This document shows positions 12,081 through 63,256 of a stretch of 64,000 nt of DNA, one piece after another; the first letter of the stretch is position 1; every line of letters begins with the position of its first letter. A program made the position numbers and the translations under genes. The notes under the pieces are model-generated. The model was not told where the DNA came from, ran no database searches, and worked only from the letters and a program-made list of their open reading frames with translations. Location of the stretch: NCBI GenBank assembly GCA_017509565.1, contig JAFWPM010000115.1, forward strand, positions 8,401-72,400. Reading direction: 5' to 3'. Origin of the DNA: Kiritimatiellia bacterium. GTDB taxonomy: Bacteria > Verrucomicrobiota > Kiritimatiellia > RFP12 > JAAYLN01.

Positions 12081-12216
12081 CATTCGAGCAACGAAGCGCG
12101 CCGCCGGACGGGAGGGACGCGCTTCCGCGCGACCACGGTGAGGACGGCGTCTTCCGTTCCCGGCCTTGTATTCGGCGGGTTCCTCGCAAGGGGCGCAAAG
12201 CGAGGCTTCGCTTCCG

Positions 12217-13284: not shown

Positions 13285-13401
13285 CATGATTTCAACTCGT
13301 TGAGAACAATGCCTGAGACGCGGCGTACGCCGAAAAGAGGGTGATCCTTGAAAAGCTCTTGACTCGATACGCAAAAATACTAGCAAACCGCCTCGTAAAA
13401 C

Positions 13402-14694: not shown

Positions 14695-14731
14695 GACAAT
14701 CTCCCGGTCGGGGCTACTGCTTCCAATGCCC

Positions 14732-28293: not shown

Positions 28294-29124
28294 TTAGCAC
28301 GGCGAAAGCTGTTCGCCGCCATCGACGCGGAAGACCTGGCCGGAGATGTAGGCGCCGCCAGGGCCACAGAGGAAGACGGCGAGGCGCGCGATGTCGTCGG
28401 GCGTCCCGACATGTTCGAGGCGGCTCAGCCCTGGCGTCGGCTCGACGCGGTCGCCCCCGAAGCGGATGCGCGTCGAGGGCGTGTTGATGTTGCCGGGAAC
28501 GATGCAGTTCACCGGGATGCCGTCGTGGCGGAGGTTCGCCGCAAGGAGCCGCGTGTATTGGTGGACGGCCGACTTGGCGACGGAGTAGGCGGCGAAATCG
28601 CCGCCGCCGGTTTTGTTGCCACCACATCCCGCGATGGAGCCGATGGTGACGATGCGTCCGTCGCCGCGCCCGCGCATGTCCGGGACGACGGCGCGGCAGC
28701 AGAGCATGGTCGTTAGAAGGTTGTGGTCGATGACGGCGTGGACAAAGCTGGTGTCGAATGTGGCAGCGTTGCCTTTCGGCGATTCGGTCCGCAGTGCTAC
28801 ACCGACATTGCCGCCGCCTGCCGCGCAGACGAGGATGTCGATCTTGCCGAGGCTTGCGCGGATTTTCTCCGCGCAGCGCGACACTTCCTCCTCGCGCGAA
28901 AGCTCGCCACAGACGGCGATGCAGCGGACACCGTATTCGCGGGCAATCTCGGTCGCTACATCGTCAACCGAAGTCCCCTCGCCAGAAGAGCGCAGGTTCG
29001 TCTGGTTGCGGCCGGAGATGGCCATGTCGCAGCCAGCTTCGGCTAGCCGTTCGGCAATGCGCCTCCCTATGCCGCGTGACGACCCTGTGACCCACGCGAT
29101 TCTTCCTTGAAGCTCCTTGTCCAT
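28294..29124 (-). CDS. short-chain dehydrogenase/reductase (SDR)
   Basis: TGSSRGIGRRIAERL (TGxxxGxG), NAG-like CAAGGG, and a Y-x3-K region (YSVAKSAVHQYTR). Start at MDKELQGR. Confidence 0.8.
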   Translation of the reverse strand: MDKELQGRIAWVTGSSRGIGRRIAERLAEAGCDMAISGRNQTNLRSSGEGTSVDDVATEIAREYGVRCIAVCGELSREEEVSRCAEKIRASLGKIDILVCAAGGGNVGVALRTESPKGNAATFDTSFVHAVIDHNLLTTMLCCRAVVPDMRGRGDGRIVTIGSIAGCGGNKTGGGDFAAYSVAKSAVHQYTRLLAANLRHDGIPVNCIVPGNINTPSTRIRFGGDRVEPTPGLSRLEHVGTPDDIARLAVFLCGPGGAYISGQVFRVDGGEQLSPC

Positions 29125-29172
29125 GTCACGTTCTTGCTCGTTCTTGTTCGGCTCTTCCGGCGTTTGCACTCG

Positions 29173-38645: not shown

Positions 38646-38825
38646 CATGTCCGCCCAGACCTTTATCCGCGAGCCGCCGATTAAGGGGCCGCGGCGTCTG
38701 CCATGCCGGCAGGCGCCGCAAGAGCGACAAACCAATGTTTGAAAGCAGTCATGCGCGAGACTCCCTCCGCAGGGTTTTCAGTCGCCGCCTATTCTACCAG
38801 AACAAAGCCCGCCATGCAAGGGGAC

Positions 38826-45902: not shown

Positions 45903-45948
45903 TAATTGCCATCATTTTAACCATAAGGATGGTCATATCATGGCACTG

Positions 45949-47175
45949 ACACTGGAATCCCTCAGGGGCTTGAAGGTTGGAGTATGCGTTTCCGGCGGGC
46001 TTGACAGCAAGACGATCGCCAAGAGGTTCACCGAGGCCAGAATTGAAACGGTCGCTTTCACGGCGGACGTCGGGCAGCCCGACGAAAAGGACATCAACGA
46101 CGTCGCCAAGCGCATGGCCCCGTGCGGCGTTGACACCGTCATCGTTGACTTGAAGAACGAGATGGCCGACGCCTGCTTCGACGTGATAGAGGCGCAGGCG
46201 ATGTACGACGGCGGCTACTGGAACTCCACCGGGATTGCGCGCGCCGTGACGGTCAGGGGCCTCATCCCCGAACTCCGCAAGCGCGGGTGCAACGTGCTTT
46301 CGCACGGCGCGACCGGGCGCGGCAACGACCAGATGCGCTTCGAGCGCTACACGAACGTCCTGGCTCCGGACATGAAGGTGTTCGCCCCATGGCGCGACCC
46401 CGAGCTGCTCAAGCAGTTCCCCGGCCGCACCCAGATGGTCGACTATCTCGCGAAGTTCGGCATCGTCGCCTTCGCCGGCGGGAAGAAGAAGTATTCGACG
46501 GACTGCAACCTCGCCGGGCTCTCGCACGAGGCCGAGGACCTTGAGAGCATGGAGACGCCGATGAGCATTGTCGAGCCGACGATGGGCGTGTGGCCCTTCC
46601 AGGCGCCCGACAAGCCGGAACTCTTCACGGTGCGCTTCGAAAAGGGGCGCTGCGTCGCCATCAACGGCAAGGACGTGACGCCGCTTGAGGCGATGCTGCT
46701 GGCCAACAGGATCGGCGGCCGCAACGGCGTCGGCATGAAGCACGCGCTTGAAAACCGCATCATCGGGACGAAATCGCGCGGCGTCTACGAGGCGCCGGGC
46801 ATGGAGGTCCTCGCCTGGGCCCTCCGCTACCTCTACCAGGCGACGATGGACCGCCGCGCCACGCTTCTCTTCCAGCAGCTCTCGAAACTGGTCGCCGACC
46901 AGATTTACGACGGCCGCTGGTTCGACCCCGCCACGCAGGCCGCCCGCGCCGCAATCGGCGTGTTCTCCGCGAAGGCCACGGGCACAGTCACGGTGTCGCT
47001 CTACAAGGGCAACATCTTCTTCGAGTCCCTCAAGGGCTGCGCCGCCTCCATCTACAACGAGGCCGACTCCTCGATGGAGGCCAGCGCCGGCCTGAATCCG
47101 GTCAGCTCCCAGGGATTCGCGGAAATACAGTCCGTCGAGGCCTTCTCGCTCGCGAAGGCCGGACAGATCGGGTAA
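45949..47175 (+). CDS. argG: argininosuccinate synthase
   Basis: MALTLESLRGLKVGVCVSGGLDS (PP-loop) ... GATGRGNDQMRFE ... full-length homology pattern. The annotated 633-aa ORF has a false N-terminal extension. Confidence 0.9.
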   Translation, partial: TLESLRGLKVGVCVSGGLDSKTIAKRFTEARIETVAFTADVGQPDEKDINDVAKRMAPCGVDTVIVDLKNEMADACFDVIEAQAMYDGGYWNSTGIARAVTVRGLIPELRKRGCNVLSHGATGRGNDQMRFERYTNVLAPDMKVFAPWRDPELLKQFPGRTQMVDYLAKFGIVAFAGGKKKYSTDCNLAGLSHEAEDLESMETPMSIVEPTMGVWPFQAPDKPELFTVRFEKGRCVAINGKDVTPLEAMLLANRIGGRNGVGMKHALENRIIGTKSRGVYEAPGMEVLAWALRYLYQATMDRRATLLFQQLSKLVADQIYDGRWFDPATQAARAAIGVFSAKATGTVTVSLYKGNIFFESLKGCAASIYNEADSSMEASAGLNPVSSQGFAEIQSVEAFSLAKAGQIG

Positions 47176-47198: not shown

Positions 47199-47660
47199 AT
47201 GATGGAACTTAACTGGACACTGGAGGCGGGCGGCATTCGCTTCGCCATTGTCGTCAGCCGCTTCAACACCTTCATCACGGAACAGCTTGTCAAGGGCGCC
47301 GTGGACTGCATAGAGCGCCATGGGGGCTCCTCCGACCAGATAACGCTGGCGCGGGTGCCAGGCGCCAACGAGCTCCCGCTCGTCGCCGACCGCCTCGCCG
47401 CCTCCGGCAAGTTCGACGCTGTCATCGCCCTTGGCGCGGTAATCCGCGGGGCGACGCCGCACGCCGACCTCATCAACAGCCAGGTTTCGAAGTCGCTCGC
47501 GCAGGTGTCGGTGGCGCGCGGCGTCCCGGTGATCAACTCGGTGATCTGCGCCGACAACATCGAGCAGGCGATCGAGCGAGCCGGGACAAAGGCCGGCAAC
47601 AAGGGCTGGGACGGCGCCCAGGCCGCGATGGAGATGGCGACGCTGTGCAGGAAGCTCTAG
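47199..47660 (+). CDS. ribH: 6,7-dimethyl-8-ribityllumazine synthase
   Basis: FAIVVSRFNTFITEQLVKGA...DAVIALGAVIRGATPH..., the lumazine synthase signature. Confidence 0.9.
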   Translation: MMELNWTLEAGGIRFAIVVSRFNTFITEQLVKGAVDCIERHGGSSDQITLARVPGANELPLVADRLAASGKFDAVIALGAVIRGATPHADLINSQVSKSLAQVSVARGVPVINSVICADNIEQAIERAGTKAGNKGWDGAQAAMEMATLCRKL

Positions 47661-47704: not shown

Positions 47705-48268
47705 ATGTCGGAGGGTGAAAATACCGCGGCCAGGCGCACTGTGCCGCACAGCCTTGACGGCACGATTCGGCGCCGCAACTCGCGCGAATGGGCCCTGCAA
47801 ATGCTGGTGGCGCTCGAAATGGCCCCGCCCGAGGATTCGCTGGAGGAATTCTTCCCTACTTTCTGGGAGTTCGAGCGCGACATCATCCAGGATCTGAACA
47901 CCGACCCGACTAACGCGCTCAGGAGTTTCGACGGCGAGGCGGCCAAGCCGCACCGCGCCTTTGCGGAAAAGCTTGTCGAGGGCATCAGGGCGCATCTCGA
48001 CGAAATCGACGCCCGCATCGAGGGCTACCTTGAGAACTGGACGCTCCAGCGCATCGGCAGCGTGGACAGGAACGTCCTCCGCGGCGCCTTCTACGAGCTT
48101 TTCTTCATCAACGAGACCCCCCCGGCAATCATAATCAACGAGGCCGTGGACATCGCGAAGTATTTCAGCACCCGCGAATCCGGGAGATTCGTCAACGGCA
48201 TTCTCGACAGGGCCGCGAAAAGCCTTGGCAAACCACTTCACTTCCAGGCGGACGCCCCGAAGTTCTAG
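47705..48268 (+). CDS. nusB: transcription antitermination factor NusB
   Basis: RRNSREWALQMLVALEM...VDRNVLRGAFYELFF...FVNGILDR. The conserved ribH-nusB gene pair. Confidence 0.8.
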   Translation: MSEGENTAARRTVPHSLDGTIRRRNSREWALQMLVALEMAPPEDSLEEFFPTFWEFERDIIQDLNTDPTNALRSFDGEAAKPHRAFAEKLVEGIRAHLDEIDARIEGYLENWTLQRIGSVDRNVLRGAFYELFFINETPPAIIINEAVDIAKYFSTRESGRFVNGILDRAAKSLGKPLHFQADAPKF

Positions 48269-48450: not shown

Positions 48451-49728
48451 ATGAAAATACTGGTTGTAGGCGGAGGCGGACGCGAACACGCCATTCTGTG
48501 GAGACTGTCCAGGGACGGCGAGGCGCATGAACTCTTCGCGGCCCCCGGGAACGGCGGGACCGCCGGCATTGCCACCAACGTCCCGATAGGGGCCGAGGAC
48601 ATTGGCGGCATCGTGGCATGGGCCAAGGCCGAGCGGCCCGGCCTCGTCGTCGCCGGGCCGGAGGCGCCGCTTTGCGCGGGCCTGGCCGACAGGCTTGCCG
48701 AAATCGGGATCCCGGTATTCGGCCCGAAGCAGGCGGCCGCCCGCATGGAGGGGAGCAAGCAGTTCGCCAAGGACGTGATGAACGCCGCCGGCGTCCCGAC
48801 GGCCAAGGCCATGACCTTCACCGACAGCGCCGCGGCAATCAAGGCGCTTCCATCGTTCGGGCTTCCAGTGGTGATCAAGGCCGACGGCCTGGCCGCAGGC
48901 AAGGGGGTTGTAATCGCCCAAACGGCGGCCGAAGCCGAGGAAACCGTCCGGTCGATGCTTGACGGCCACCAGTTCGGCGACTCCTCGGCCTCGATTCTAG
49001 TGGAGGAGTTCCTCGACGGCGAGGAGGCCTCGATCCTGGCGCTGGTCGACGGGGCCGACATCGCCATCCTCCCCGGGGCGCAGGACCACAAGCGCGCGCT
49101 CGACAACGACCAGGGGCCGAACACTGGGGGCATGGGCGCCTACTCGCCCGCGCCGGTCGTCACCCCCGAAATTGAAAAGTTCGCCCTTGAGAACATCTTC
49201 CGCCCGACTGTCGCCGAACTCAAGCGGCGCGGCATAGAGTACCGCGGCGTCCTCTACGCCGGCCTCATGATCGGCCCGAAGGGCGTCAACGTCCTTGAAT
49301 TCAACTGCCGCTTCGGCGATCCCGAAACCGAAGTCATACTTCCGCGCATAGGCGGCGACTTCGCCCAAATCCTGCTTGACTGCGCAAAGGGGCGCCTCAC
49401 GTCGCCGATATCCGTCCGGACGGAGGCGTGCGCGACCATCGTAATGGCAGCGCCGGGCTACCCCGGCAAATACCCGAAGGGCCTGCCAATCGCCGGCCTC
49501 GACGCCGCCGGGGCGGTCCCGGGCGTAACGGTCTTCCACGCGGGAACGGCGCTGAAGGACGGCGCGACGGTCACAAGCGGCGGCCGCGTCCTCGCCGTCA
49601 CGGCGCTCGGAAACACCCTGCGCCAGGCCGTCGACGCCGCATACGCCGGTGTCCGCGCCATAGGCTTCGACGGCGCCCACTACCGCACGGACATCGCGCA
49701 CCGCGCCTTCGCAAGGGGGGCGAAATGA
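48451..49728 (+). CDS. purD: phosphoribosylamine-glycine ligase
   Basis: MKILVVGGGGREHAI ... ATP-grasp motifs ... 425 aa. Confidence 0.9.
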   Translation: MKILVVGGGGREHAILWRLSRDGEAHELFAAPGNGGTAGIATNVPIGAEDIGGIVAWAKAERPGLVVAGPEAPLCAGLADRLAEIGIPVFGPKQAAARMEGSKQFAKDVMNAAGVPTAKAMTFTDSAAAIKALPSFGLPVVIKADGLAAGKGVVIAQTAAEAEETVRSMLDGHQFGDSSASILVEEFLDGEEASILALVDGADIAILPGAQDHKRALDNDQGPNTGGMGAYSPAPVVTPEIEKFALENIFRPTVAELKRRGIEYRGVLYAGLMIGPKGVNVLEFNCRFGDPETEVILPRIGGDFAQILLDCAKGRLTSPISVRTEACATIVMAAPGYPGKYPKGLPIAGLDAAGAVPGVTVFHAGTALKDGATVTSGGRVLAVTALGNTLRQAVDAAYAGVRAIGFDGAHYRTDIAHRAFARGAK

Positions 49729-50180
49729 TCTACGACACGATTGAAAGCATAGGCATCTACCGGTCTTCGATACCGAACTTAGACGCAGTGCGCGAATTTC
49801 TGGCCTCGGACTTGGCGGCGCTGCCAGACGGCAAGGTGGCAATCGACGGCGACCGGGTCTTCGCCACCATCTCCACCTACGGGACGAAACGCCTTGAGGA
49901 CGGCGTGTTCGAGGCCCACAGCCGCTATGCCGACATCCAGCTGCTCCTCGACGGCGAGGAACTCTGCGGAGTAGTGCCCGGCGCGGACTGGCTGAAGGAA
50001 ACCATAGCCTACGACCCCGCCAGGGACATCAGGTTCTTCGCCAGCCCGCCGTCATTCGCGCGGATCACGCTCTCGTCCGGACTATTCGCATTCTTCGGCG
50101 CGCGCGACGCCCACATGCCCGGCATCGCGGTCGGCGCGATGGGCCGTGTCCGCAAATGCGTAATCAAAACCCTCATCTAA
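49725..50180 (+). CDS. YhcH/YjgK/YiaL (DUF386) family protein, NanQ-like sugar anomerase/epimerase family
   Basis: MIYDTIES...FEAHSRYADIQLL is the family signature. The ATG overlaps the purD TGA (ATGA). Confidence 0.65.
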   Translation: MIYDTIESIGIYRSSIPNLDAVREFLASDLAALPDGKVAIDGDRVFATISTYGTKRLEDGVFEAHSRYADIQLLLDGEELCGVVPGADWLKETIAYDPARDIRFFASPPSFARITLSSGLFAFFGARDAHMPGIAVGAMGRVRKCVIKTLI

Positions 50181-50197
50181 GCGCACTACCAGCCATG

Positions 50198-51304
50198 GAA
50201 CTATCCGTCTTGATCCACAACTTCGACATCCCCGGCCAGCTCGTGACGGTCATCCCCATCGGCGGTGGCAACATCAACGACACGTTCCTGGCCATATTCC
50301 GGAACGCCTTCTCCGAGACCCAGGTTATCCTGCAGAGAATCAACGACAAGGTGTTCCCGAAGCCAGAGGTGATCATGGCGAACATGCACCTCATCACCCG
50401 CCACGCGCACCAGAAGCTGGCGAAGGAGATTGAGACGTCGGACCGCGTCTGGCAGCTGCCTAAAATCATCCCGACGCGCGACGGCAAGGATTTCTACCGC
50501 TGCGAAGACGACGGCTCCTACTGGCGCGTCATCACCAAGATCGCCTCCGCCACGGCCTTCCCCACGACGCAGGGGCCGGAGCACGCGGCCGAGTGCGGCG
50601 CCGTTCTTGCGCACTTCCACTGGCTTGTCTCGGACATCGACCCGACGCTGCTCGCAAACCCGCTGCCCGGCTTCCACATCACGCCCGGCTACATGGAGCT
50701 CTACGACAAGACCCTGGGCGACAAGTCCGCCCAGGCCCGGCTGACGACCTCCGTGGAGGCCCGCCGTCTCGCGAAGATGATCGACGAGCGCCGCGATTTC
50801 GCCTCCACCCTGGCGAGGGCCATCGCGAACGGCGAAATCCAAAACCGCGTCATGCACGGCGATCCGAAGATCACGAACATAATGATCGACGACTACACGG
50901 GCAAGGGAACAGCCATAATCGACCTCGACACCGTTGGCCCCGGACTTGTCCACTACGACTTCGGCGACGCCATACGCTCGATTTGCAACCCCGCCGGCGA
51001 GGAGGAGATGAACCTGAACAAGGTCGTCTTCGACATGGATCTGTTCGAGGCATTCGTCCGGGGCTACCTGCACTACGGGAAGGCGTTCCTGACCGAAGCC
51101 GACCGCGAATACCTCTTTGACTCCGTAAGGCTCATCACTTTCGAACTTGGGCTCCGCTTCTTCCAGGACTACCTCGCGGGAAGCGTCTACTTCAAGACGA
51201 AGTCGCCGACGCAGAACCTCAACCGCGCAAGGGTGCAGTTCCGGCTCTGCGAATCGATAGAATCGCGCGAGCGGATGATCCGCGCCGCGCTGGGGAAATG
51301 GTAG
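50198..51304 (+). CDS. N-acetylhexosamine 1-kinase-like aminoglycoside-phosphotransferase-fold kinase (NahK-like)
   Basis: GGGNINDTF..., HGDPKITNIMID, AIIDLDTVGPGLVHYDFGD, FFQDYLAGSVYFKTKSP track Bifidobacterium NahK motif for motif (HNDTKLNNILMD / IIDLDTIMPG / FLADYLEGDIYF). Confidence 0.7.
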   Translation, partial: ELSVLIHNFDIPGQLVTVIPIGGGNINDTFLAIFRNAFSETQVILQRINDKVFPKPEVIMANMHLITRHAHQKLAKEIETSDRVWQLPKIIPTRDGKDFYRCEDDGSYWRVITKIASATAFPTTQGPEHAAECGAVLAHFHWLVSDIDPTLLANPLPGFHITPGYMELYDKTLGDKSAQARLTTSVEARRLAKMIDERRDFASTLARAIANGEIQNRVMHGDPKITNIMIDDYTGKGTAIIDLDTVGPGLVHYDFGDAIRSICNPAGEEEMNLNKVVFDMDLFEAFVRGYLHYGKAFLTEADREYLFDSVRLITFELGLRFFQDYLAGSVYFKTKSPTQNLNRARVQFRLCESIESRERMIRAALGKW

Positions 51305-51309
51305 GCGCG

Positions 51310-52485
51310 ATGCAAGGTGCCAGAGAGGAGAGCGGCGGCGACGCCGCATGGTACTTCACGCCTTCGGGCGCCAATGCGATTGGCCCGGTGGGCATTGACG
51401 AAGTCCGCGCCGCGGTCCTTGACGGGCGCATCGCCCCAGACACGGCAGTATGGAACCCCAGCTACGGGCAGGAGTGGCGGGCAGCGGGCCTTGTCGCCGA
51501 ACTCGCCGGGACATGGCGTGAAATGGAAAGGCGCCGCGTGGCCGGAATAGCGGCCACGGCCGCCATCGGGACCAATCCGCCGCGGCAGGCGTTCGCAGAA
51601 TCCGCCCGCCTTGTCGCCGCATACCTCCTGCACCCCTTCTCGATAGGCGCGTGGCTGTCCCTTGCGCTCTGCAACCTCATGGCGGCGTCGCGCATGGTGG
51701 TGGGAAGCGGCGACGGCCCCGTGGCGTGGCTGGCCACGACGTCCGACGGCATGTCCTCCCCCGGGGCCTTCGCGGCGGCAATCTTCCGCTACCTCCGGAG
51801 CTGCGCCAATGAAATGTTCGACCCGCAAATGCGGGTTTCCTGGCTGGCCCCCGCCCTCGTCTACGGAATCTTCACGGCCTACATCTGCGCCCGCGGCCAC
51901 ATGCTCCTAGCCGGCAAGGCGATATTCCCCGAAGAGGGTCTCGGCGACCTGTGGCGCCGCGGCGCCGGGCGCATCTCAACCCTGGTCCGCCTGTATTTCT
52001 CCCTTGACCTGATTTTGAACTTCGGCTTCTTCCTCCTTGTCCGGCAGTTCCTCGACGCTGGCGGCATGCTGCGCGGCGACCTTGCCCCCGCCGACCTCAA
52101 GGCGGCGCTCGGCAACGGCGCGGCCCTGCGATGGCTCGTCGGCGCAGCGCTCCTCGTCGGCGCCAGCGAGTTCGCGAGGGCATTCGCTTTCCACTTCGCC
52201 GAACCGCTAGTGTTCCTCTGGGGAATACCCGTCTCCACGGCCCTGCGCCTTTCCGCCGGAGCCGCCCTGCGCCAGCCGGTGCGCTTCGCCGCCTTTTTCA
52301 CAATCGTCATTGCGAGCCGCGCCGCATACCTCGCCATCGCGGTTTTCGCCGCGCTGATGCTCCCCCCGGCCGCAATGCTCCCGGCGGCAGTGATAATCCT
52401 CCTGCCTTTCGACTTCCTCATACGGGTGTTCGGGACGCGGTTCATCGCGCCCCGCCTCCCAGATGATGCGGACTCCGGCAATTGA
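51310..52485 (+). CDS. membrane protein with N-terminal DUF4339 (GYF-like) domain
   Basis: WYFTPSGANAIGPVGIDEVRAAVLDGRIAPDTAVWNPSYGQEWRAAGLV, then several hydrophobic segments. Confidence 0.5.
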   Translation: MQGAREESGGDAAWYFTPSGANAIGPVGIDEVRAAVLDGRIAPDTAVWNPSYGQEWRAAGLVAELAGTWREMERRRVAGIAATAAIGTNPPRQAFAESARLVAAYLLHPFSIGAWLSLALCNLMAASRMVVGSGDGPVAWLATTSDGMSSPGAFAAAIFRYLRSCANEMFDPQMRVSWLAPALVYGIFTAYICARGHMLLAGKAIFPEEGLGDLWRRGAGRISTLVRLYFSLDLILNFGFFLLVRQFLDAGGMLRGDLAPADLKAALGNGAALRWLVGAALLVGASEFARAFAFHFAEPLVFLWGIPVSTALRLSAGAALRQPVRFAAFFTIVIASRAAYLAIAVFAALMLPPAAMLPAAVIILLPFDFLIRVFGTRFIAPRLPDDADSGN

Positions 52486-52531: not shown

Positions 52532-53597
52532 AATGAAGAAAATCGGTATCGGTATCATAGGATGCGGCGTCATAGCGCCGACGCACGCCGAATCATACGC
52601 GCTCGACAAGAACGTAAGGCTCGTTACCGCCTGCGACGTTATCCCTGAACGCGCCAAGGCCCTGGCGGAGCGCTTTGGATTCAAAGGGACGGCCACGGAC
52701 GCCGCCGACGTGTTCGCGGACCCTGGGATTGACGCCGTCAGCATCTGCACCCCGCACTTCAACCACGCTAAGCTGTGCGAGGCCGCCCTCGCCGCCGGCA
52801 AGGACGTGCTATGCGAAAAGCCAATCGCCAACACCCGCGCGGGCCTCGCGCTCGTCAGGAAGGCCGAGGCCAAATATCCGGACCGGATATTCTCCGGCGT
52901 TTTCCAGCACCGCTACAACCCCGTCTTCAGGGAACTCCGGCTCCTTGTCGGCGAAGGCGCCTTCGGGACAATCGCGACGGCCGCCTTCCACAACCGATGC
53001 CTGCGCACGGATTCCTACTACAGCGCAGATTCCTGGCGCGGGACAAAACGCTATGAAAACGGCGGCGTCCTGATCAACCAGGCAATCCACTACCTCGACA
53101 TCTTCCAGTGGACAATGGGCGGCATCGACTCCATAGCCGGCGCCTCAATGGCAAACCGGACCCACCAGAACTCCATCGAGACCGAGGACACCATAGCCGC
53201 CACAGTCCTTTTCAAAAACGGGGCGATCGGCACAGTCGAAACGACAAACTCCGCCATCATCCACTGGGACACGATGCTTGAAATCACGGGCAGCGACGGC
53301 TTCGTGTCAATCACCGACGGCAACATCGTCAGGATGGAGTTCTCCAACCCCGCCGCCGCAAGGCGCATGAAGGCCGCGCAGAAGGCCCACGACGCCCGCA
53401 ACAGGAAGGTTGACGGCGTCGGGCGCTCATACTACGGCCTTGGGCACCCGTCGCAAATCGCCGACTTCCTCTCCTGCGTCCGCAGGCGCGGCCGGCCATT
53501 CGTGACCGCATCCGACGCCAGCGTCGCCGCCGAACTCGTCCTTGACATCTACCAGGCGGCCGCAAGGCGCGCGAAGAAGGCCCCGGCAAGGGCCTGA
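52532..53597 (+). CDS. Gfo/Idh/MocA family NAD(P)-dependent oxidoreductase
   Basis: MKKIGIGIIGCGVIAPTHAE ... CEKPIA ... the characteristic N-terminal Rossmann and EKP motifs. Confidence 0.85.
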
Positions 53598-55429: not shown

Positions 55430-55486
55430 GAGATAAGATGTCTGTCCCTTTATGCACACTGTCAATAAGATGTCTGTCCCTTTGTG
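55430..55486. repeat. two tandem copies (R4 partial, R5) of the 30-bp dispersed repeat
   Basis: GATAAGATGTCTGTCCCTTTATGCACAC then TGTCAATAAGATGTCTGTCCCTTTGTGGAT. R5 overlaps and provides the GH78 stop codon. The upstream GGGACAGACA (55390-55400) is complementary to TGTCTGTCCC. Confidence 0.65.
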
Positions 55487-58080
55487 GATATGGCATGAAT
55501 GCCGGGACCGAATTCGCGGGGCGGGAGGCCGGGGGCGATCACGGTTGCTGATGTGCCGCGCGGGATTGTGAAGCGCCATGTCCAGGTTGCGCCGCCATCG
55601 CCATAGCGCCAGGCGCTTTCGATTTCGCCACATGGCGAGCGGTGGCGCGCCGTTACGTGGCCGACGCGCCGGTCCGGCAGCGGCGCAAGGATGAAGTGGC
55701 GGAATCCCGGGTTCCCCGGATCCTCGCGTATCCCAGCCATGTGCGACATCATCCACGCGAAGACCGCGCCGTATGCGTAGTGGTTCAGCGAATTGCCGCC
55801 CGCCCCGGGATGGAGTCCGCGTTCGCGGCTGTAGGCGTCCCAGCGCTCCCAGACCGTGGTCGCGCCCTGCACGACTGGGGACAGCCAGGACGGGCATTCG
55901 CGCTGCAACAGCAGCGAGTAGGCGAGGTCGGGCGCGGCGGCTTCATCTGAGAGGACGTCAAGAATCATCGATGTGCCAAGAAAGCCGGTCTGGAGTCGGC
56001 ATCCGTGGGCGCGGATGTTTTCAAGCAGGGCGTCGCGCGTGGCGTGGGCCGGAGCCGGGTCGAGAAGGCGGAGGCGGAGCGCGAAGAGCGCCGGAGTCTG
56101 CATGCCGCGGAATGGACGGAGGAGGAGACCGTCTGCGGGATCCACGAAGTTTTCGCGGATGTACGCGAGCGCGCGGGTGGCCATGTCGGAGTATTTGCGG
56201 GGCGCAGTGGCCCCGCGCCACGAGACTGGGGGCGCGGGGGCCACGCATGGAGATGCTTGGGGCGCAGAGGCCCGTGCCATCTCCGCCATCATGCGCGCGT
56301 CCATGAGCCAGTGGCAACACCCGAGATAGCGCCACAGGAGCAGGGCGTCCGGTTTAACCGGCGGGACGTTTTTCACCCCGCCGACATAGGCGCGTCCGCT
56401 GCATGTCTCCAGCGCTTCGAACGAAAGCCAGTCGGCCCACTGGTGTTCCAGGGCCTGCGGCGAGGCGAACTTCATGTTGTCCACAAGCGCGACATACCGC
56501 TCCATGGCGTCCCAGTTCTCCTCGACAATGCGACGGTCGCCGAAGTGGCGCCATACGGTGTATGGGACGATTACGCCGGCGTCGGCCCATCCGAACTGGT
56601 GCTCGTTCGCGCCGACGCGGCCCGGCGGCGCGACGCCCGGGAATCCGCCGTCGGGGTTCTGGCTGTCGCGCATGTCGCGCATCCACTTGCGCAGGAAGTC
56701 CCGGACATCGGCGTTGTAGCAGGCGGCCTTGGCGAACACCTGCGTGTCGGCCGTCCAGCCAAGGCGCTCCGCGCGCTGGGGGCAGTCAGTCGGGATCGAG
56801 AGGTAGTTCGAGCGCTGGCTCCATAGGATGTTCGAGACAAGGCGGTTCAGCTCCGGGACGCCGGTTTCGAGATGCGCGGTCTCGGCGTCGGCGTGGATGG
56901 ACGACACGGGGATCCAGCGGACACGGCGTATTTCCACCGGGCCGTCGGCGGCGACGGAGAGGTAGCGGCCCCCGAAGTACGTGAACGACGGGCGGTGGCG
57001 CTCCTCTCCGGCGCCGGCGAAGGTGTAGCGCAGCAGCGAGCGGGCGCCGAGGTAGTTGGAGGTGTAGGCGGAGCCTTCCGGGCCGTCGCAGCCGCGCGAC
57101 TTCGCGCCGTTGCCGTCGTTGAGCAGTTCGGCGGGCCGCGCGGAGAGGGTGGTGCCACGCTGCGCCGAGAAGACGAACTCCGGCACCGCCGCGCAGTTCT
57201 GCCCGAAGTCGAGGACGAGCGTTTCGCCGGGGATTATTGCAATCGGCTGCAATCGGCTGCAATCGAACACAGTCGTTTTTACTACCGTGCCGAAGTGGCC
57301 GGCGTCGGCGCCCGTGACGCCGCGCCAGGCGTAGGCCGCGACGGGGGCCATCGCGAGGTCGTGGCGCAGCGCGACGCAGGGCCCCTCCATCGGGACGATG
57401 GCGCCGGAGAACTCGGTGTTTTCGACGGCTGGCGAAAATGATTTTCCAACGCGGAGACGCAGAGACGCGGAGTCCGCAAGAACCTTGTGCCTCTTTGTGT
57501 TCTTTGTGGCCAAAGATTCCCTCCATGACGGGGCAAGCCGCGCGTCGTAGTCCTCGCCGTCGTAGATGCCGGCGCGCAGCACGGGGCCGGCGGCGCCGGA
57601 GGCGAGCCAGGTGGCGTCGGTGCCGACGCGCGTCTCGGTGCCGTCGGGGTGGCGCAGTACGAGGACGGCGCGGAATGCCGAGCGCTTGCCGCGGAAGAGG
57701 ACGACGCGGTCGCGCCACCACCCTGAGGAGACGTATGCGCCGAAGCGGTTTTCCTCGCCTGCGCCGGTGCGGATGAGGCGCGTGATGTCGTAGCGGAAGG
57801 CGTGGCGGGTCTTGGCGAAGTGCGTGTAGCCGGGCTTGAGGAAGTCGTCCGCGCCGACTTCGGCGCCGTTCGCGAAGGCGCGGAAGACGCCGAGGCCGGT
57901 CATGTTCCAAAAGGCCCCGGCGACGGGCTTCCCGTTGCGCACCGTCTTTTCGAACCAGGCGGTGCCGTCCTCGGGCTCGCGCTTGCCGGCGTAGGGGTCT
58001 TCGTCAGGACTGCGCACGGGCGAATCCGCCGCGCTTATCCAGATGGAGCCGTCGAAGTCGGAGTGGCGTGGGCTTTTCAT
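55462..58080 (-). CDS. alpha-L-rhamnosidase (GH78) with an in-frame RPE-like insertion and repeat-derived C-terminus
   Basis: IPTDCPQRAERLGWTADTQVFAKAA is the GH78 signature, and the protein is 872 aa. The insert LATKNTKRHKVLADSASLRLRVGKSFSP is encoded by E3. The last six codons plus stop (KGQTSY) come from repeat R5. The ATG overlaps the upstream TGA (ATGA). Confidence 0.85.
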   Translation of the reverse strand: MKSPRHSDFDGSIWISAADSPVRSPDEDPYAGKREPEDGTAWFEKTVRNGKPVAGAFWNMTGLGVFRAFANGAEVGADDFLKPGYTHFAKTRHAFRYDITRLIRTGAGEENRFGAYVSSGWWRDRVVLFRGKRSAFRAVLVLRHPDGTETRVGTDATWLASGAAGPVLRAGIYDGEDYDARLAPSWRESLATKNTKRHKVLADSASLRLRVGKSFSPAVENTEFSGAIVPMEGPCVALRHDLAMAPVAAYAWRGVTGADAGHFGTVVKTTVFDCSRLQPIAIIPGETLVLDFGQNCAAVPEFVFSAQRGTTLSARPAELLNDGNGAKSRGCDGPEGSAYTSNYLGARSLLRYTFAGAGEERHRPSFTYFGGRYLSVAADGPVEIRRVRWIPVSSIHADAETAHLETGVPELNRLVSNILWSQRSNYLSIPTDCPQRAERLGWTADTQVFAKAACYNADVRDFLRKWMRDMRDSQNPDGGFPGVAPPGRVGANEHQFGWADAGVIVPYTVWRHFGDRRIVEENWDAMERYVALVDNMKFASPQALEHQWADWLSFEALETCSGRAYVGGVKNVPPVKPDALLLWRYLGCCHWLMDARMMAEMARASAPQASPCVAPAPPVSWRGATAPRKYSDMATRALAYIRENFVDPADGLLLRPFRGMQTPALFALRLRLLDPAPAHATRDALLENIRAHGCRLQTGFLGTSMILDVLSDEAAAPDLAYSLLLQRECPSWLSPVVQGATTVWERWDAYSRERGLHPGAGGNSLNHYAYGAVFAWMMSHMAGIREDPGNPGFRHFILAPLPDRRVGHVTARHRSPCGEIESAWRYGDGGATWTWRFTIPRGTSATVIAPGLPPREFGPGIHAISTKGQTSY
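57431..57511. repeat. palindromic RPE-like element, copy E3, in-frame inside the GH78 gene (81 nt, 27 codons)
   Basis: CCAACGCGGAGACGCAGAGACGCGGAGTCCGCAAGAACCTTGTGCCTCTTTGTGTTCTTTGTGGCC. The right arm is identical to E2 (CTTTGTGTTCTTTGTGGC). Confidence 0.7.
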
Positions 58081-60659
58081 TTGAGGATGGCAAGGTCCTT
58101 CACAAAGAGCGAGCAGCGCGTCCCGCGCGGGTTCGCGCCGATGCGGATCGCCCTGACGGCAGCGGTGTCAAGTCCGGGCGGGAGGAAGACGCGGCGCCGC
58201 TCCCACGCCCCGGTCGGGGCGTCGTATGGGATGAAGACATCGGGGCGGCCGTCGCCATAAACGAGCATCACGTACTGCGACTTGAAGTCGTTCTCCACCT
58301 TGTCCTGCTCGCTGCGGATGTCGAACTCGATGCGCCGTGCGCCGGCCAGGCTTTCGCCGGGCGCGAGATCGCGGACAGGGTACATCCAGCGGTCGGATGC
58401 GGCGCTCTCCCAGGACGCGTCGAAGCGGATGGCGTCGCCGGAGACGGAGATTCCCTGCGCGTCGCCGGAGGAGTTGCGGCGCCAGAGCGCCGGGTCGCCC
58501 CACGGCAGCCCCACCCGCTCGCATGTGGCGACGAAGTCCTTCTCGAAGAGGAGGTTCATCGCGAGGCGGGAGACCGGGCGGCCGCCGAAGGCGCCGGAGA
58601 GGACGAGGGCGGAATCCGGCGGCGTTTCCGCCGCCGCGCCGGACTCCCGGCTGACTTCGCAGTCGAAGACCGCGGGGCCCTCGGTGTATGGCGGCACCGC
58701 GAAAGGCGCGGCGGGGAGGCCGGAGACGGCCGCGCCGGAGGCTTCGACGACGCCCGTCTTCACGGAGTCGGAGAAGTTCCAGACCTCGATTGCGGCGCGG
58801 CCGGCGTCGCCCTTCACAACGGCGATGGTCTTGCGGCCTGAAATCTCGAAGTCCTCGCGGCTTGGCCGGATGCGCAGGACGATGGAGAGATCCTGAACGG
58901 ACGGCGCCGCCTCGGCAAAACCGGCATTGGAACGGGGGACGATTGCCGGCTCAAGCCCGCCGAGGCCCGAGAGGAAGGAGGGGAAGCGCGTGGCCGGGAG
59001 GGCGAGCGCGCCGTTGGCGTCAGGCGCCACCGTTGAGACGCCGCCGCACATGTCCACGAGGCGGAACGTTTCCTCACGCGGAGTCGCAGAGGCGCAGGGA
59101 TTTTTTGCCTCGCCCTGTGCCTCTGTGCCTCTGTGTGACATTCCTGGAACGGCAAACCGCCACTCACGCGCGTAGTCGGGTTCGGCGGGGACGACGCCGT
59201 CGCGGGCCGTGTCCACGGGCGATTCGCTCCAGAAGGCGACGGTCTGCGAGCCGTCGGGCTGCGCGTAGAGGAACGCGCGGATGCCGGTCGGCGCGTCGAG
59301 CGCGCCGAGAAGGCGCGCGGAGCCGAGCTCGCGGTTCATCGTGGCGAGCGCGGAGAATACCGGCTTCACGGTGCCGTCGCGGCGGATGACGCCCCAGTCC
59401 TTGCGGCCGCCGCGCTCGTCGTAGGCGCCGAAGACGAAGAAGAAGGACCGCTCCACGCCCTCCATCTGGAAGGATATCTGCGCCTTGGCGCAGCATTCGG
59501 CCTGGATCAGCTCCTGATCCGGCGAGTGGGCCTTGCGCCCCTCCATGACGCCGTCCTTTTCCGGCAGGCCCTCAAGCTCCGTGCCGAATTCCGTGACCCA
59601 GACGGGCTTGTTGGCCGCGCCGGCGGCGGCGAGCTTTTCGCGCACCAGGCGGAACGTCCCGGCATGCTTCGAGACGGGGACGTAGGTGTGGTAGTTGAAG
59701 ACGTCAAAGTAGTCGGCCGCGCCGTTCGCGAGGAGGGCGTCATGGTATGGCGAACTCTGCGGCGGCAGGCTCAGCGCGCCGTTCAGCACGGTGACGCCGG
59801 GATTGCCGGCCCTGAAGCCAAGCGCGGCGACCTTAAACGCGGCGGCATAGTCCCAGACCGGCTCCGGCGCGAAGGCGAGATCCGGCTCGTTCCAGAACTC
59901 CCAGTCGTCCATGCAGTCGCCAAAAGCCGCGGCGGCGCTCCGGCAGAATTCGTAGAGGGCGGGGATGTCGGTGGGGAGGCGTCCGGCAGGGAGCGCCCAG
60001 GCGGGGGAGTCGTGGAACATCCCGGAGACGCCGATGCCGAGGGCTCGGAGCATTTGCGCGTTGGCGAGGTAGCGGCCGAAGTCGGGCGGCGCGTCGCCGG
60101 AGGGCTGGACATGGCGCCAATGGAGGCGGTCGCGCACATGGCGGAAGCCGGCCAGGCTCAGCAGGCCGGCGACGGTGCGCTCCGTGTCGCCGCCGTTCCA
60201 CGGGCAGAGGAAGGCGCCGCGCCGGGAGATAGAGGAAAGGGCCGTGTCGGCGGCGAAAGGCCCCCCCTCCGCCCCCCTGCCGGGGGGGACGTGCGCGCTC
60301 GCAGAGCGCGCACCTTCACTGAGGCTTGCAAGAGTGGCGAGGATTTCATTGCCGTTGTCCGCTTGCTGCTTTCCGATCATCCGCCAGTAGCCGGCGGGGA
60401 GGGGCGGGAGGGTGGCGCGGCCGTCGGCGTCAAAGGCGCCGGAGAGGCCGGTGTCGCGGCCGCGCCAGTCAACGATGCGCCATGCGGCGCCAGGCTCGCC
60501 GCCACTTGCCGAGACCGCCGCGCCCTCGGAGGCGGCGTGGCCGGGGGCGTCAAGGACGACACCAATGGGAGGGCCGGCCTCTGTGCCGGCCGCAGAGGCC
60601 GCTACGGAGCGCAGCCCTCCCGCCGCCACAAGCGCCAGGCACAATGCAAGCCGCTTCAT
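58077..60659 (-). CDS. secreted glycoside hydrolase (GH-A clan TIM barrel, GH5/GH39-like) with in-frame RPE-like insertion
   Basis: Signal peptide MKRLALCLALVAAGGLRSVAASAA. DDWEFWNEPD and KPVWVTEFG (acid/base and nucleophile-type motifs). The insert SHRGTEAQGEAKNPCASATP is encoded by E4. Confidence 0.65.
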   Translation of the reverse strand: MKRLALCLALVAAGGLRSVAASAAGTEAGPPIGVVLDAPGHAASEGAAVSASGGEPGAAWRIVDWRGRDTGLSGAFDADGRATLPPLPAGYWRMIGKQQADNGNEILATLASLSEGARSASAHVPPGRGAEGGPFAADTALSSISRRGAFLCPWNGGDTERTVAGLLSLAGFRHVRDRLHWRHVQPSGDAPPDFGRYLANAQMLRALGIGVSGMFHDSPAWALPAGRLPTDIPALYEFCRSAAAAFGDCMDDWEFWNEPDLAFAPEPVWDYAAAFKVAALGFRAGNPGVTVLNGALSLPPQSSPYHDALLANGAADYFDVFNYHTYVPVSKHAGTFRLVREKLAAAGAANKPVWVTEFGTELEGLPEKDGVMEGRKAHSPDQELIQAECCAKAQISFQMEGVERSFFFVFGAYDERGGRKDWGVIRRDGTVKPVFSALATMNRELGSARLLGALDAPTGIRAFLYAQPDGSQTVAFWSESPVDTARDGVVPAEPDYAREWRFAVPGMSHRGTEAQGEAKNPCASATPREETFRLVDMCGGVSTVAPDANGALALPATRFPSFLSGLGGLEPAIVPRSNAGFAEAAPSVQDLSIVLRIRPSREDFEISGRKTIAVVKGDAGRAAIEVWNFSDSVKTGVVEASGAAVSGLPAAPFAVPPYTEGPAVFDCEVSRESGAAAETPPDSALVLSGAFGGRPVSRLAMNLLFEKDFVATCERVGLPWGDPALWRRNSSGDAQGISVSGDAIRFDASWESAASDRWMYPVRDLAPGESLAGARRIEFDIRSEQDKVENDFKSQYVMLVYGDGRPDVFIPYDAPTGAWERRRVFLPPGLDTAAVRAIRIGANPRGTRCSLFVKDLAILK
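59079..59138. repeat. palindromic RPE-like element, copy E4, in-frame inside the hydrolase gene (60 nt, 20 codons)
   Basis: CGCGGAGTCGCAGAGGCGCAGGGATTTTTTGCCTCGCCCTGTGCCTCTGTGCCTCTGTGTGAC. The left arm is homologous to E3, and the arms are complementary. Confidence 0.65.
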
Positions 60660-60673
60660 GAAAACCGGCGCCG

Positions 60674-63256
60674 CTACCGCAACACCATCACGAAGGCGTT
60701 GATGTGGCGGAGATATACGCCGTTGCTTTCGTATTTGACCGCCCAGTCGTCCGGCCAGTCTGCGGCAAGCTGGAACTGCCCGGTGTACTTGCTCGTCGTG
60801 ATGCGGTAGAAATTATTTGCGGCGTTCTTGTCAAACGTCGAGGGGTCGGCCATCGAGAGCGTGATGCCGGAGATGTCCTGGTTGTCGGAGTATGGGCCGG
60901 AGGTACCGCTGAAGGCCACCTTGCCGCAGCCCGTCGCGTCGCCGGCGATTTCAAGCGTCGCGTTGGACAGGTCGCAGGTTTCGTAGAAGGTTATCGTGCC
61001 GCCGATGCTCGGCGCGATCCTGCCGTTTACGACTACCTTGCCGCAGTAGTTGAGAGTGCCGCTGCCTTCGATTCCGCCGAGCGTCGCCGCCGTGCGGGTG
61101 TGATTGGCTTGCTTCTCGGCGTCAGTGTTGCCCGTTCCGTCGTACTTGCAGAAGCCGACTTGGCCGCCGTTCCTCAGAACGAGCGTCGTCCCGGCGGGGA
61201 GCAGGTTGTCGCCTCCGCGCTGCTGGAGGGCGGCACCATCGACAGTCGTCGGGCCGTTGTACGAGCAGGGAACCATCAGGATCGCGGCGCCGGACGAACC
61301 TGTCCTCCGCACGATCATGCCGCCGTCAGGAACGCCCTCCGTGGCTGTGACGAGCGGCTTGCGCCACCAGATGTTCTTCCCGTTGGAGTTGTCCAGCACC
61401 GCACCGCCCGGACCGACCGCGAACTTGACGCCTTCCCACTTGGCGTAAGTTGGCGACGTGAACAGTGCGTCGTTCCCGTCTGCGCTTTGGATCGCGCCGC
61501 CGTCGAAGAGGAACGTCACGTCGATGTTGTTGGAATCGTTCGCCCACAAATACAGCTGCTTGACGCGGAGAAGCCCGCCGGTCGCCAGACGGGCGACCGT
61601 AGGCCCGCCAGTCACATTCTGGCCCATGCGGAAATTGCCGACTTCCAGGACGCCGCCGTCCCGTATCGTGGTGAGACTGGCGCTACCGTGCGCGTTGCAC
61701 CAGTGGGAGTTCGGCATCGAAACGGTGCCGCCGCAGATGTCCGCGTGGCCACCGCTTTGGATGGTCGCATAGCTCGTGCCGGTCTGCGGGGCGAGAATCA
61801 GCGCGCCGTCCTGGACGGCGAGGTTGCCCGTGACGTGGATCAGGGCCGTGTCGGAACCCGTGCCGCTGACACCGGAAGTCACGCGCGTGACGCCGCTCGT
61901 CACTTCGAGATTGCCGGCGACGACCAGCCTCCCGACGTCGTTCGTGCGGTTTTCGCCAGGGCCGATGACCGTGGTTCCGGCGTAGTCGCCGGGCACTTGG
62001 ACGTATGTGTTCGTCGGATAGTCCAGTCCGCCGACCGCTTCGCCCTTGATTTCGCCGCCGATCACGAGCTTCGCATTCTCGGCCGCCGCGACGATGAAGG
62101 GCTTCCCGTTGGCAATCGAGACATTGCGGTTGGGGTTGACTGCAAGCGTCGGGGTTGTGGAATTGTATTGGGCGTAGAGAGTGTGGTTGGCACCTGTCAC
62201 GAAGATGTTTGCCTCCGGCGTCTCCGGGACGGCCCCGAAGACCGAGTCGCCGTATGCCGGGTTGACCTTGAGCATTGCACCGCTGCTGGACTCAAGCCAT
62301 ACGCCGCCGTTGAACGCAGAACCTTGTGCATACCACTGCGGCGAGCCTTTGCCGAGGAAATGGACGCCGCCGTCCTTTTCGCCAGCACCGGCGCCGCTCC
62401 AGAAGGCGGGCTGGACAATCGTGTTCGCAACGTCGGTGCTGATGTAGCATCCCCCGGCACAAACAGTGGGGGAGACCGTGTTTTCGCCCCATGTCGTAGT
62501 CAGGCCATTGCCGAAAAGGTTTCCACCGGCGTTGGATGCGTAAAGGATGCCTCCGTCAAACCAAATCCGTCCGTAATAAGCGGAGTTGGCATCCAGGAAG
62601 AACTGCTTTGCCAAATGGACGGCGCCACCCCTGTTCAGGCGGAGGCCCGTCGTTTCCTTTACGGCCTGGATGCCCCGCGTACCGCTCGACGCCGGACGGA
62701 TGTAGTTCGCCTTGAGGATGCCGCCCTCGCCAACCACGACCTCGCTGCCGCCGGAGCCGACGCCGCCGTGTGCGATCATGAAGTTGGCGCCAAGGCCGGT
62801 GGCGTCGAAAGTCGCGTTCGTGATAGTGAATGTTCCTCCGCGGAAATTCGCATAGCTACCGCCGCCGAACGAGACTTGCGCCCCGCCGTCGATGAGGATG
62901 GACTGCGCGCCTGTCTCGCTCTCCATGACGCACGAGCCGACGCCAGTGCCCGTCGCGGTCGAGTCGGAGATCGTGGTGGAGCCGCCGGAGATGTGGAGCG
63001 AACCGGCGGAGACGCGCAGACGCTTGAGCGAATTGGCGCCATTCAGTTCGAGCGTGCCGTCGCCGGTCTTGACGGTGGCGGAGGTCTCCGTGACGCCGGT
63101 GTGCGTGTCGGTGGCGCCGGCGGCGACGTCGTGCGTGTCCGCGAGCGCCGCCGGTGCGGCGGCGAGCATTATCGCGGTCGTGGCGATCAAGTAGCGTGAA
63201 GTCTTCATTGCGGTTCCTCGTTTTGGGTGCTTGACAATGAGTGTGGCCGACGGCAT
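60674..63256 (-). CDS. secreted PATR beta-helix protein (860 aa) with C-terminal hydrophobic-Arg tail ...INAFVMVLR
   Basis: Signal peptide MKTSRYLIATTAIMLAAAPAALA. G/T/S/N-rich beta-strand repeats (GGTITFYETCDLSNATLEIAG etc.). Confidence 0.7.
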   Translation of the reverse strand: MPSATLIVKHPKRGTAMKTSRYLIATTAIMLAAAPAALADTHDVAAGATDTHTGVTETSATVKTGDGTLELNGANSLKRLRVSAGSLHISGGSTTISDSTATGTGVGSCVMESETGAQSILIDGGAQVSFGGGSYANFRGGTFTITNATFDATGLGANFMIAHGGVGSGGSEVVVGEGGILKANYIRPASSGTRGIQAVKETTGLRLNRGGAVHLAKQFFLDANSAYYGRIWFDGGILYASNAGGNLFGNGLTTTWGENTVSPTVCAGGCYISTDVANTIVQPAFWSGAGAGEKDGGVHFLGKGSPQWYAQGSAFNGGVWLESSSGAMLKVNPAYGDSVFGAVPETPEANIFVTGANHTLYAQYNSTTPTLAVNPNRNVSIANGKPFIVAAAENAKLVIGGEIKGEAVGGLDYPTNTYVQVPGDYAGTTVIGPGENRTNDVGRLVVAGNLEVTSGVTRVTSGVSGTGSDTALIHVTGNLAVQDGALILAPQTGTSYATIQSGGHADICGGTVSMPNSHWCNAHGSASLTTIRDGGVLEVGNFRMGQNVTGGPTVARLATGGLLRVKQLYLWANDSNNIDVTFLFDGGAIQSADGNDALFTSPTYAKWEGVKFAVGPGGAVLDNSNGKNIWWRKPLVTATEGVPDGGMIVRRTGSSGAAILMVPCSYNGPTTVDGAALQQRGGDNLLPAGTTLVLRNGGQVGFCKYDGTGNTDAEKQANHTRTAATLGGIEGSGTLNYCGKVVVNGRIAPSIGGTITFYETCDLSNATLEIAGDATGCGKVAFSGTSGPYSDNQDISGITLSMADPSTFDKNAANNFYRITTSKYTGQFQLAADWPDDWAVKYESNGVYLRHINAFVMVLR

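Follow-up and report, generated by a model that had tools for sequence, protein, structure and literature searches.

A NahK-family sugar kinase widespread in Kiritimatiellia and its DUF386 neighbor in one sub-clade

The stretch of DNA analyzed here, referred to below as the window, covers 64 kb of a contig (JAFWPM010000115.1, assembly GCA_017509565.1) from a Kiritimatiellia bacterium of the gut or rumen. The gene at positions 50195-51304 of its plus strand encodes a protein of 369 amino acids (aa) that, by sequence and structure comparisons, is a genuine member of the family of NahK, the N-acetylhexosamine (HexNAc) 1-kinase of Bifidobacterium longum. Directly upstream (49725-50180, +) lies a gene for a 151-aa protein of the DUF386 (YhcH/YjgK/YiaL) family, a candidate sugar anomerase. 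We consider it probable, with considerable room for doubt, that the kinase is a conserved enzyme for the salvage of HexNAc through its anomeric position, which recently gained a possible anomerase partner in one sub-clade. The finding is real but largely ordinary, since it adds a new phylum to the range of known enzyme families and does not overturn current understanding. What is new is an unannotated NahK-family member in a phylum where it is ubiquitous, together with a lineage-specific DUF386 partner.

Affiliation of the kinase with NahK

When the kinase was compared with all PDB sequences (phmmer), the only strong matches were NahK entries (4wh1/4ocj, E = 1e-49, residues 8-365), and the next one, at 3.5e-3, was an aminopropanol kinase deposited as "aminoglycoside phosphotransferase". 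B. longum NahK (LnpB, BL1642; PDB 4WH1-3, 4OCJ) is a full-length homologue, aligning end-to-end over 356 columns with 33% identity (NahK residues 13-350, rebuilt from the PDB alignment). The AlphaFold2 model of the kinase has a predicted local distance difference test (pLDDT) score of 88.9 and a predicted template modeling (pTM) score of 0.87. In the Foldseek search with this model, six NahK entries (4wh1-3, 4ocj/u/v) came first, with template modeling (TM) scores of 0.82-0.85 and E values of about 1e-25. Beyond them were the homoserine kinase 2ppq (TM 0.60) and choline/ethanolamine kinases and aminoglycoside phosphotransferases (APHs), these at TM values of about 0.5.

The residues point in the same direction. 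When 49 diverse members of the family are aligned, 19 columns show no variation; all 19 are identical in B. longum NahK, as are 23 of the 24 near-invariant ones. The invariant positions include the catalytic H221-x-D223-x4-N228 and the Mg-binding D243-x-D245, that is, the same HxDxxxxN and DxD motifs as in NahK. Outside the nucleotide site, R261, E269, R321, D325, Y332, N341 and Q348 are invariant family-wide and also present in NahK, which argues for a common substrate class. No NCBIfam model matched the kinase at E ≤ 0.01 besides a Bud32 trace. The original prediction, made from the letters of the window, had proposed a NahK-like kinase and had named the aminoglycoside, homoserine and choline kinases as the groups in which it might fall instead; the PDB match, the fold and the invariant residues all group it with NahK.

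The family around these proteins is large. A HMMER search of 1.84 billion representatives recovered 1809 clusters (50% identity level) at E < 1e-30. In a neighbor-joining tree of the best 150 representatives plus B. longum NahK, the latter nests inside the set, its nearest representative being 51% identical. The Kiritimatiellia proteins form their own clade, also holding a cluster with Opitutales/Verrucomicrobia members, so the window kinase stands apart from NahK, together with the Opitutales cluster. Further named members belong to Caldilineaceae, Prochlorococcus and Methylococcales, and their annotation goes no further than "aminoglycoside phosphotransferase family" or "RdoA (MazF antagonist)". 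The clusters P0018, P0037, P0140 and P0148, for example, carry the labels "aminoglycoside phosphotransferase family protein" or "Ser/Thr protein kinase RdoA (MazF antagonist)". Such public labels are probably a systematic mis-annotation, which is relevant to resistome surveys, and they are misleading for metabolic-model work as well. Rare natural fusions join the kinase to an N-terminal nucleotidyltransferase (P0279, 668 aa) or to a ROK-family sugar kinase (P0272, 689 aa), and fit a route from sugar-1-phosphate to nucleoside diphosphate (NDP)-sugar.

Characterized NahK-type examples come so far only from Bifidobacterium and Bacteroides. In Bacteroides thetaiotaomicron, BT4240 is a NahK-type enzyme 39% identical to NahK that phosphorylates O1 and prefers N-acetylgalactosamine (GalNAc) about 275-fold (PMC11992087). 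It is the sole GalNAc kinase of this species and a central GalNAc hub for many glycans; growth on GalNAc depends on it, and so does half of the yield on chondroitin sulfate (PMC11992087). Because of BT4240, NahK-type kinases were already known outside bifidobacteria. It had been supposed that they are undescribed in the Planctomycetes-Verrucomicrobia-Chlamydiae (PVC) group; our literature search indeed turned up no publication on one from PVC bacteria, but the gene itself occurs throughout the public genomes of Kiritimatiellia and Opitutales.

Distribution and gene neighborhood of the kinase

A pattern scan with one genome per species found at least 186 stretches encoding relatives of the kinase in Kiritimatiellia. 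The best 80 of these 186 loci, on which all Kiritimatiellia context counts are based, have full-length kinases 63-87% identical to that of the window. The exact protein was also found on metagenome contigs with identical gene order, and the relatives are overwhelmingly from metagenome-assembled genomes labelled Kiritimatiellia, Lentisphaerae or Verrucomicrobia, obtained from rumen, gut and digesters. The gene directly upstream encodes RNase R in 29 of the 80 loci, purE and purD lie convergent downstream in 15, and other neighbors encode Der, RsmE, QueE, EF-Ts and S2. Spot checks of Opitutales, Caldilineaceae and Prochlorococcus-labelled contigs showed no glycan locus around the kinase. The kinase is a widely conserved core gene across Kiritimatiellia, located among housekeeping genes and outside a dedicated glycan-utilization locus. 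BT4240, compared by its published description, is likewise a non-bifidobacterial NahK-type kinase, and its role as a single central GalNAc hub matches this core-gene behavior; however, it resides in a mucin-inducible polysaccharide utilization locus with GH2, GH109 and a major facilitator superfamily transporter, whereas the window kinase is surrounded by housekeeping genes (PMC11992087).

A more distant set, obtained from a metagenome scan with the family alignment, comprises 80 metagenome loci with kinases of 42-67% identity. Across the family, a small partner gene is often located downstream of the kinase, and its identity depends on the clade: it encodes a protein of about 180 aa, a CvpA-like protein or a GYF_2 protein. 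In distant members (42-47% identity, loci L134-L177), the kinase stop abuts a conserved gene for a protein of about 180 aa in 24-27 of the 80 loci (e.g. L139:5080-5616 and L146:5077-5610). This protein belongs to no Pfam family, having only a weak CBM9_2 trace (E = 0.0098), and is absent from the window and the Kiritimatiellia loci. On Prochlorococcus-labelled and Caldilineaceae contigs, a gene for 187-188 aa with no Pfam match follows the kinase (L095:6157-6723, L093:6284-6847). Another clade (52-54% identity; L119-L131, L158 and the Opitutales contig of P0148) has a gene for a CvpA/Colicin_V-family membrane protein directly 3' of the kinase. Its start overlaps the kinase stop (e.g. L128:5110-5925), and it abuts the kinase in 13-17 of the 80 distant loci.

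The DUF386 protein

The product of the gene upstream of the window kinase matches PF04074 at 9e-35 and TIGR00022 with 90 bits. On the NanQ equivalog model NF040884 it reaches only 72.2 bits against a cut-off of 160. Its best PDB match is Salmonella YjgK (9JRR, 4e-13), with Haemophilus influenzae YhcH at 1e-5. The name "YhcH (NanQ-like)" given to it in the original prediction is thus right as to the DUF386 family, with the metal site intact, but not as to NanQ, the protein being nearer to YjgK. The zinc ligands of YjgK are Glu62, His64, Asp69 and His128, with Gln71 and Lys146 (PMC12517248). They align with E63, H65, D70, H130, Q72 and K148 of the window protein, which shares its Pfam family and its Glu-His-Asp-His (plus Gln and Lys) metal site with YhcH/NanQ and YjgK/TabA. 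As all six are conserved without exception in 15 relatives with identities as low as 37%, we suggest that the protein is probably a functional metalloprotein.

The genes are tightly packed, with junctions of -4 nt (purD/DUF386), +14 nt (DUF386/kinase) and -7 nt (kinase/GYF_2). The housekeeping gene purD (48451-49728, +) encodes a 425-aa phosphoribosylamine-glycine ligase, or glycinamide ribonucleotide (GAR) synthetase, with GARS_N, GARS_A and GARS_C all present and a TIGR00877 score of 502 bits (cut-off 288). Read directly at 49725-49728 (+), the predicted ATGA overlap is confirmed, with the ATG of the DUF386 gene at 49725-49727 and the TGA of purD at 49726-49728. Four-nucleotide ATGA overlaps are very common gene junctions in bacteria, so this one is not statistically anomalous in itself. 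From the TAA of the DUF386 gene (50178-50180), a spacer of 14 nt (50181-50194, +) leads to the kinase ATG; the adjacency had been predicted correctly, but with a distance of 15 nt. A second in-frame kinase ATG is found at 50156, the MELSV start at 50195 being the one conserved in homologues. The TAG of the kinase (51302-51304) overlaps by 7 nt with the first ATG of the next gene, for which an alternative ATG exists at 51310. This gene (51298-52485, +) encodes a 395-aa membrane protein with an N-terminal GYF_2 domain (Pfam, 5.5e-8), for which no PDB relative was found.

The DUF386-kinase-GYF_2 unit in relatives

The close family of the DUF386 protein is small, with 16 clusters at 50% identity or more. 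In all loci for which the context of these close members is available, the DUF386 gene is directly 5' and the GYF_2 gene directly 3' of the kinase; besides the window, these are the related loci L004, L005, L084/L085 and L087. In these, the kinase is 80-88%, the DUF386 protein 50-74% and the GYF_2 protein 30-45% identical to those of the window. The GYF_2 gene follows the kinase in all sub-clade relatives, that is, in these loci and in L006. On the upstream side, purD is present in L084/L085 with the same ATGA overlap and in L005 with a 17-nt gap, a P-type ATPase gene lies 50 nt upstream in L087, and in L004 the DUF386 gene lies behind its own intergenic, non-coding region. On the downstream side, a Gfo/Idh/MocA gene comes after GYF_2 in L005, L006 and L084/L085 but not in L087, where NAD kinase is found, nor in L004, where a pseudouridine synthase (rluA-like) is found.

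This synteny pattern favors DUF386-kinase-GYF_2 as a unit. Since the three genes are kept together while their flanks change, the overlap with purD appears incidental, and a functional meaning of the proposed coupling to purD is not supported by these relatives, with their ATPase gene, intergenic region or 17-nt gap, nor by L006, where the kinase comes directly after purD. A purine link was also considered as functional evidence and rejected: the kinase is near purD/purE in many Kiritimatiellia, and a CvpA-like gene comes after that of an Opitutales homologue (in Escherichia coli, cvpA precedes purF). The pur adjacency is one ancestral neighborhood in rearranged forms, and neither L087 nor L004 nor the loci of the RNase R type retain it.

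Between the DUF386 and kinase genes, the close relatives have 53-86 nt of short tandem repeats, compared with the 14 nt of the window. The repeat units differ between genomes: ATCGTC-type units in L084 (5460-5542), CAACTTT six times in L087 (5469-5521) and a unit of about 30 nt present twice in L004 (939-1024). In two other loci, L013 and L018, a DUF386 gene is located 3-4 kb from the kinase, beyond tsf and rpsB.

Proposed function

Judging from its homology, the kinase would most likely phosphorylate free N-acetylglucosamine (GlcNAc) and/or GalNAc to the alpha-1-phosphate in an ATP-dependent reaction. Since NahK forms the alpha-1-phosphate and the configuration at C1 is retained during phosphoryl transfer, the alpha-anomer is the expected substrate. 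Retaining hexosaminidases would release beta-HexNAc, and the DUF386 metalloprotein could plausibly speed beta-to-alpha mutarotation for the kinase, relieving a kinetic bottleneck as GalM does for GalK. A uridylyltransferase may then turn HexNAc-alpha-1-phosphate into UDP-HexNAc, to be used in catabolism or to build the cell envelope. In Kiritimatiellia, the kinase is probably a constitutive salvage enzyme. The GYF_2 membrane protein would be a downstream partner gained in the sub-clade, and the ATGA overlap would merely reflect the place of the unit in a long co-directional run, with no metabolic tie to purine synthesis.

The precedent for the anomerase step is E. coli YhcH, a metal-dependent N-acetylneuraminic acid anomerase ("openase") that opens and anomerizes a sugar ring and is the only DUF386 member with a demonstrated activity (PMC8141875). 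According to the same paper, anomerases usually serve C1 kinases (PMC8141875). Unlike YhcH/NanQ, the window protein falls under the equivalog cut-off, is accompanied by no nan genes in the scanned open reading frames (ORFs) and has a C1 kinase rather than an aldolase as partner. The logic proposed here would be that of the galM-galK and fucU-fucK pairs, an anomerase supplying the proper anomer to a C1 kinase. However, the folds of GalM and RbsD/FucU are unrelated to DUF386, and an anomerase activity of the window protein is suggested by analogy.

Should the kinase prove to be a HexNAc 1-kinase, Kiritimatiellia would route free GlcNAc/GalNAc via the anomeric phosphate, instead of or besides the usual 6-phosphate path. 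These bacteria are abundant in guts and sediments, where they degrade sulfated glycans and glycans of hosts or plants, but they are poorly represented in culture. In the type strain Kiritimatiella glycovorans, GlcNAc is one of only four substrates giving stable growth (PMC5148204). The DUF386-kinase pairing offers a testable anomerase hypothesis for a family with one known activity. Our literature search found no paper mentioning a GlcNAc or GalNAc mutarotase/anomerase.

Several observations weigh against the interpretation of the kinase as a HexNAc salvage enzyme with an anomerase partner. The substrate is assigned at 33% identity to NahK, the genes beside the kinase include none for a uridylyltransferase, an epimerase or a transporter, and no sugar activity is known for YjgK, the closest solved relative of the DUF386 protein (PMC12517248). 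Moreover, L006, whose kinase is 79% identical to that of the window, has the order purD-kinase-GYF_2 without a DUF386 gene. About 72 of the 80 Kiritimatiellia loci have no DUF386 gene adjacent to the kinase, nor do any of the 80 distant ones. A single DUF386 match among the distant loci, in L133, was rejected, as it falls on a purD ORF and is an artefact caused by seed ORFs of the hidden Markov model that reached too far at the N terminus. Because of its absence from L006, from the other Kiritimatiellia loci and from the distant set, the DUF386-kinase association is recent and dispensable. It is confined to one narrow sub-clade and may be a neutral insertion.

Alternative explanations

A serious possibility, although we hold it to be less than even, is that the DUF386 gene is an unrelated passenger, for instance for a YjgK-like metal/biofilm protein, inserted between purD and the kinase in one lineage, and that the spacing results from genome compaction. 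The restriction of the adjacency to a sub-clade with kinases at least 80% identical would suit this explanation, as would the closeness to YjgK in the PDB. So would the nearest outgroup DUF386 proteins (37% identity), whose genes adjoin an EamA transporter gene and not the kinase. The surroundings also fit, being a run of unrelated co-directional genes with short gaps that extends on the plus strand from argG to a ferredoxin-nitroreductase gene (about 45.9-55.4 kb). It comprises argG (45925-47175, +), ribH (47199-47660, +), nusB (47705-48268, +), purD, the three genes of the unit and a gene for a Gfo/Idh/MocA NAD(P) sugar oxidoreductase two genes 3' of the kinase (52533-53597, +; Pfam), followed by rluA for a pseudouridine synthase and then ferredoxin-nitroreductase. 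A scan of the run for promoter and terminator consensus found nothing above the shuffled expectation, although this phylum may not follow the sigma-70 consensus. On the other side, the DUF386-kinase-GYF_2 order survives at least three flanking contexts, with DUF386 proteins down to 50% identity. In addition, as far as is known, all characterized or context-annotated DUF386 members relate to sugar metabolism, namely YhcH and also YiaL and EbgC.

As for the Gfo/Idh/MocA protein, its NCBIfam matches are all far under the cut-offs, and its best PDB match is 3q2i at 3e-33. The best solved relatives are 3q2i/3q2k, which we take to be WlbA UDP-sugar 3-dehydrogenases, and a glucuronide 3-dehydrogenase.

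The more ambitious form of the anomerase proposal appears rather doubtful to us. It would make the DUF386 protein a dedicated HexNAc anomerase for the NahK-type kinase, the trio a compact HexNAc capture module, and the very large, little-studied NahK-like family, with its clade-specific downstream partners, the mark of a widespread route of HexNAc-1-phosphate salvage bypassing GlmS/GlmM. HexNAc anomerization would then be a second biochemical function in DUF386 and the enzyme the first described HexNAc mutarotase.

It also seems unlikely that the kinase acts on something other than GlcNAc or GalNAc and has only the scaffold in common with NahK, its substrate being N-acetylmuramic acid (MurNAc), as in the AmgK/MurU shortcut, another sugar or a small molecule. 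In favor of this are the modest identity to NahK and the breadth of the family, whose 1809 clusters include Prochlorococcus, Caldilineaceae and Methylococcales, which are not feeders on mucin or human milk oligosaccharides. Core-gene behavior and a housekeeping context would suit cell-wall recycling, and BT4240 illustrates that specificity can shift strongly, in its case towards GalNAc (PMC11992087). Nevertheless, all the family-invariant residues outside the nucleotide site are common to NahK, and NCBIfam offered nothing but the Bud32 trace. The shortcut of Pseudomonas, Legionella and Tannerella does resemble the proposed role of the window kinase, AmgK being an APH-superfamily kinase of anomeric amino sugars that works as a housekeeping salvage enzyme. 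The genes amgK and murU are adjacent in Legionella (lpg0296/lpg0295) and also in Pseudomonas. The window kinase is set apart by its gene context, as no MurU-type uridylyltransferase gene, nor any other NTP_transferase gene, flanks it in the window or in the sampled loci, the only instance elsewhere in the family being the rare P0279 fusion. No AmgK structure was among the PDB matches to the kinase, and the literature search yielded no publication that names AmgK together with NahK.

The original prediction had combined purD, the DUF386 gene and the kinase with "nearby" sialidase-like, GH42-like and Gfo/Idh/MocA genes into a galacto-N-biose/lacto-N-biose (GNB/LNB)-like or sialoglycan salvage route, with DUF386 as a NanQ-type anomerase, a proposal that is very improbable and largely refuted by the genomic context. 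The kinase is indeed of the NahK family, and Kiritimatiellia carry mucin-type glycosidases and sulfatases (PMC5148204). The three additional genes are also real, and that for Gfo/Idh/MocA is close to the kinase. However, in Pfam scans of the large ORFs of the window, the GH42 gene (9882-12017, -; 4e-36) and the BNR_2 "sialidase-like" gene (12217-13386, -; 7e-11) are placed 36-40 kb upstream of the kinase and on the opposite strand, beside a GH28 gene (13402-14694, -) and a gene for a GH63-like hydrolase. They are separated from the kinase by genes for a glycyl-radical enzyme, regulators, FHA and PEGA proteins, NadA and a radical S-adenosylmethionine methylthiotransferase-type protein. From its sequence matches, the cluster at 9882-19551 looks like a set for the degradation of plant pectin or galactan, not of sialoglycans. 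The carbohydrate-active enzyme encoded nearest to the kinase is a GH78 alpha-L-rhamnosidase (55462-58080, -; Pfam).

The enzymes that such a route calls for are missing too. The scanned ORFs gave no Pfam match for GH112, GalT, GalE, NanA, NanK or NanE, and nanA, nanK and nanE were not found in the related loci either. An lnpABCD-type cluster (GH112, GalT, GalE, GNB/LNB transporter) was seen around the kinase neither in the window ORFs nor in the gene tables of related contigs. The window kinase is therefore outside such a cluster, unlike NahK, and has DUF386 and GYF_2 neighbors, which the lnp cluster, as described in a review, does not have. Finally, the DUF386 protein remains far under the NanQ cut-off (72 against 160 bits), and the kinase has housekeeping surroundings in about 150 related loci.

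Other features of the window

The minus-strand region at 9882-19551 also contains an unannotated 553-aa ORF and a gene for a 1096-aa protein with weak GH42/GH39 matches. Beside the GH78 rhamnosidase gene, there are two adjacent ORFs of 860 aa each (58077-60659 and 60674-63256, -) with no Pfam matches; they were considered as possible paralogues, which was rejected for lack of mutual similarity. A pyruvate-formate-lyase-like glycyl radical enzyme is encoded at 26097-28226 (-), adjoining a short-chain dehydrogenase gene (28294-29169), and two large ORFs without Pfam match lie next to them (29173-32948). The segment 26097-29169 may be a locus for a glycyl-radical dehydratase of sugars or diols. 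Between 36001 and 38000, the GC (guanine plus cytosine) content falls to 0.445, compared with about 0.65 elsewhere, and the segment includes an ORF with no Pfam match (37326-38735, -). This low-GC island may be recently acquired DNA.

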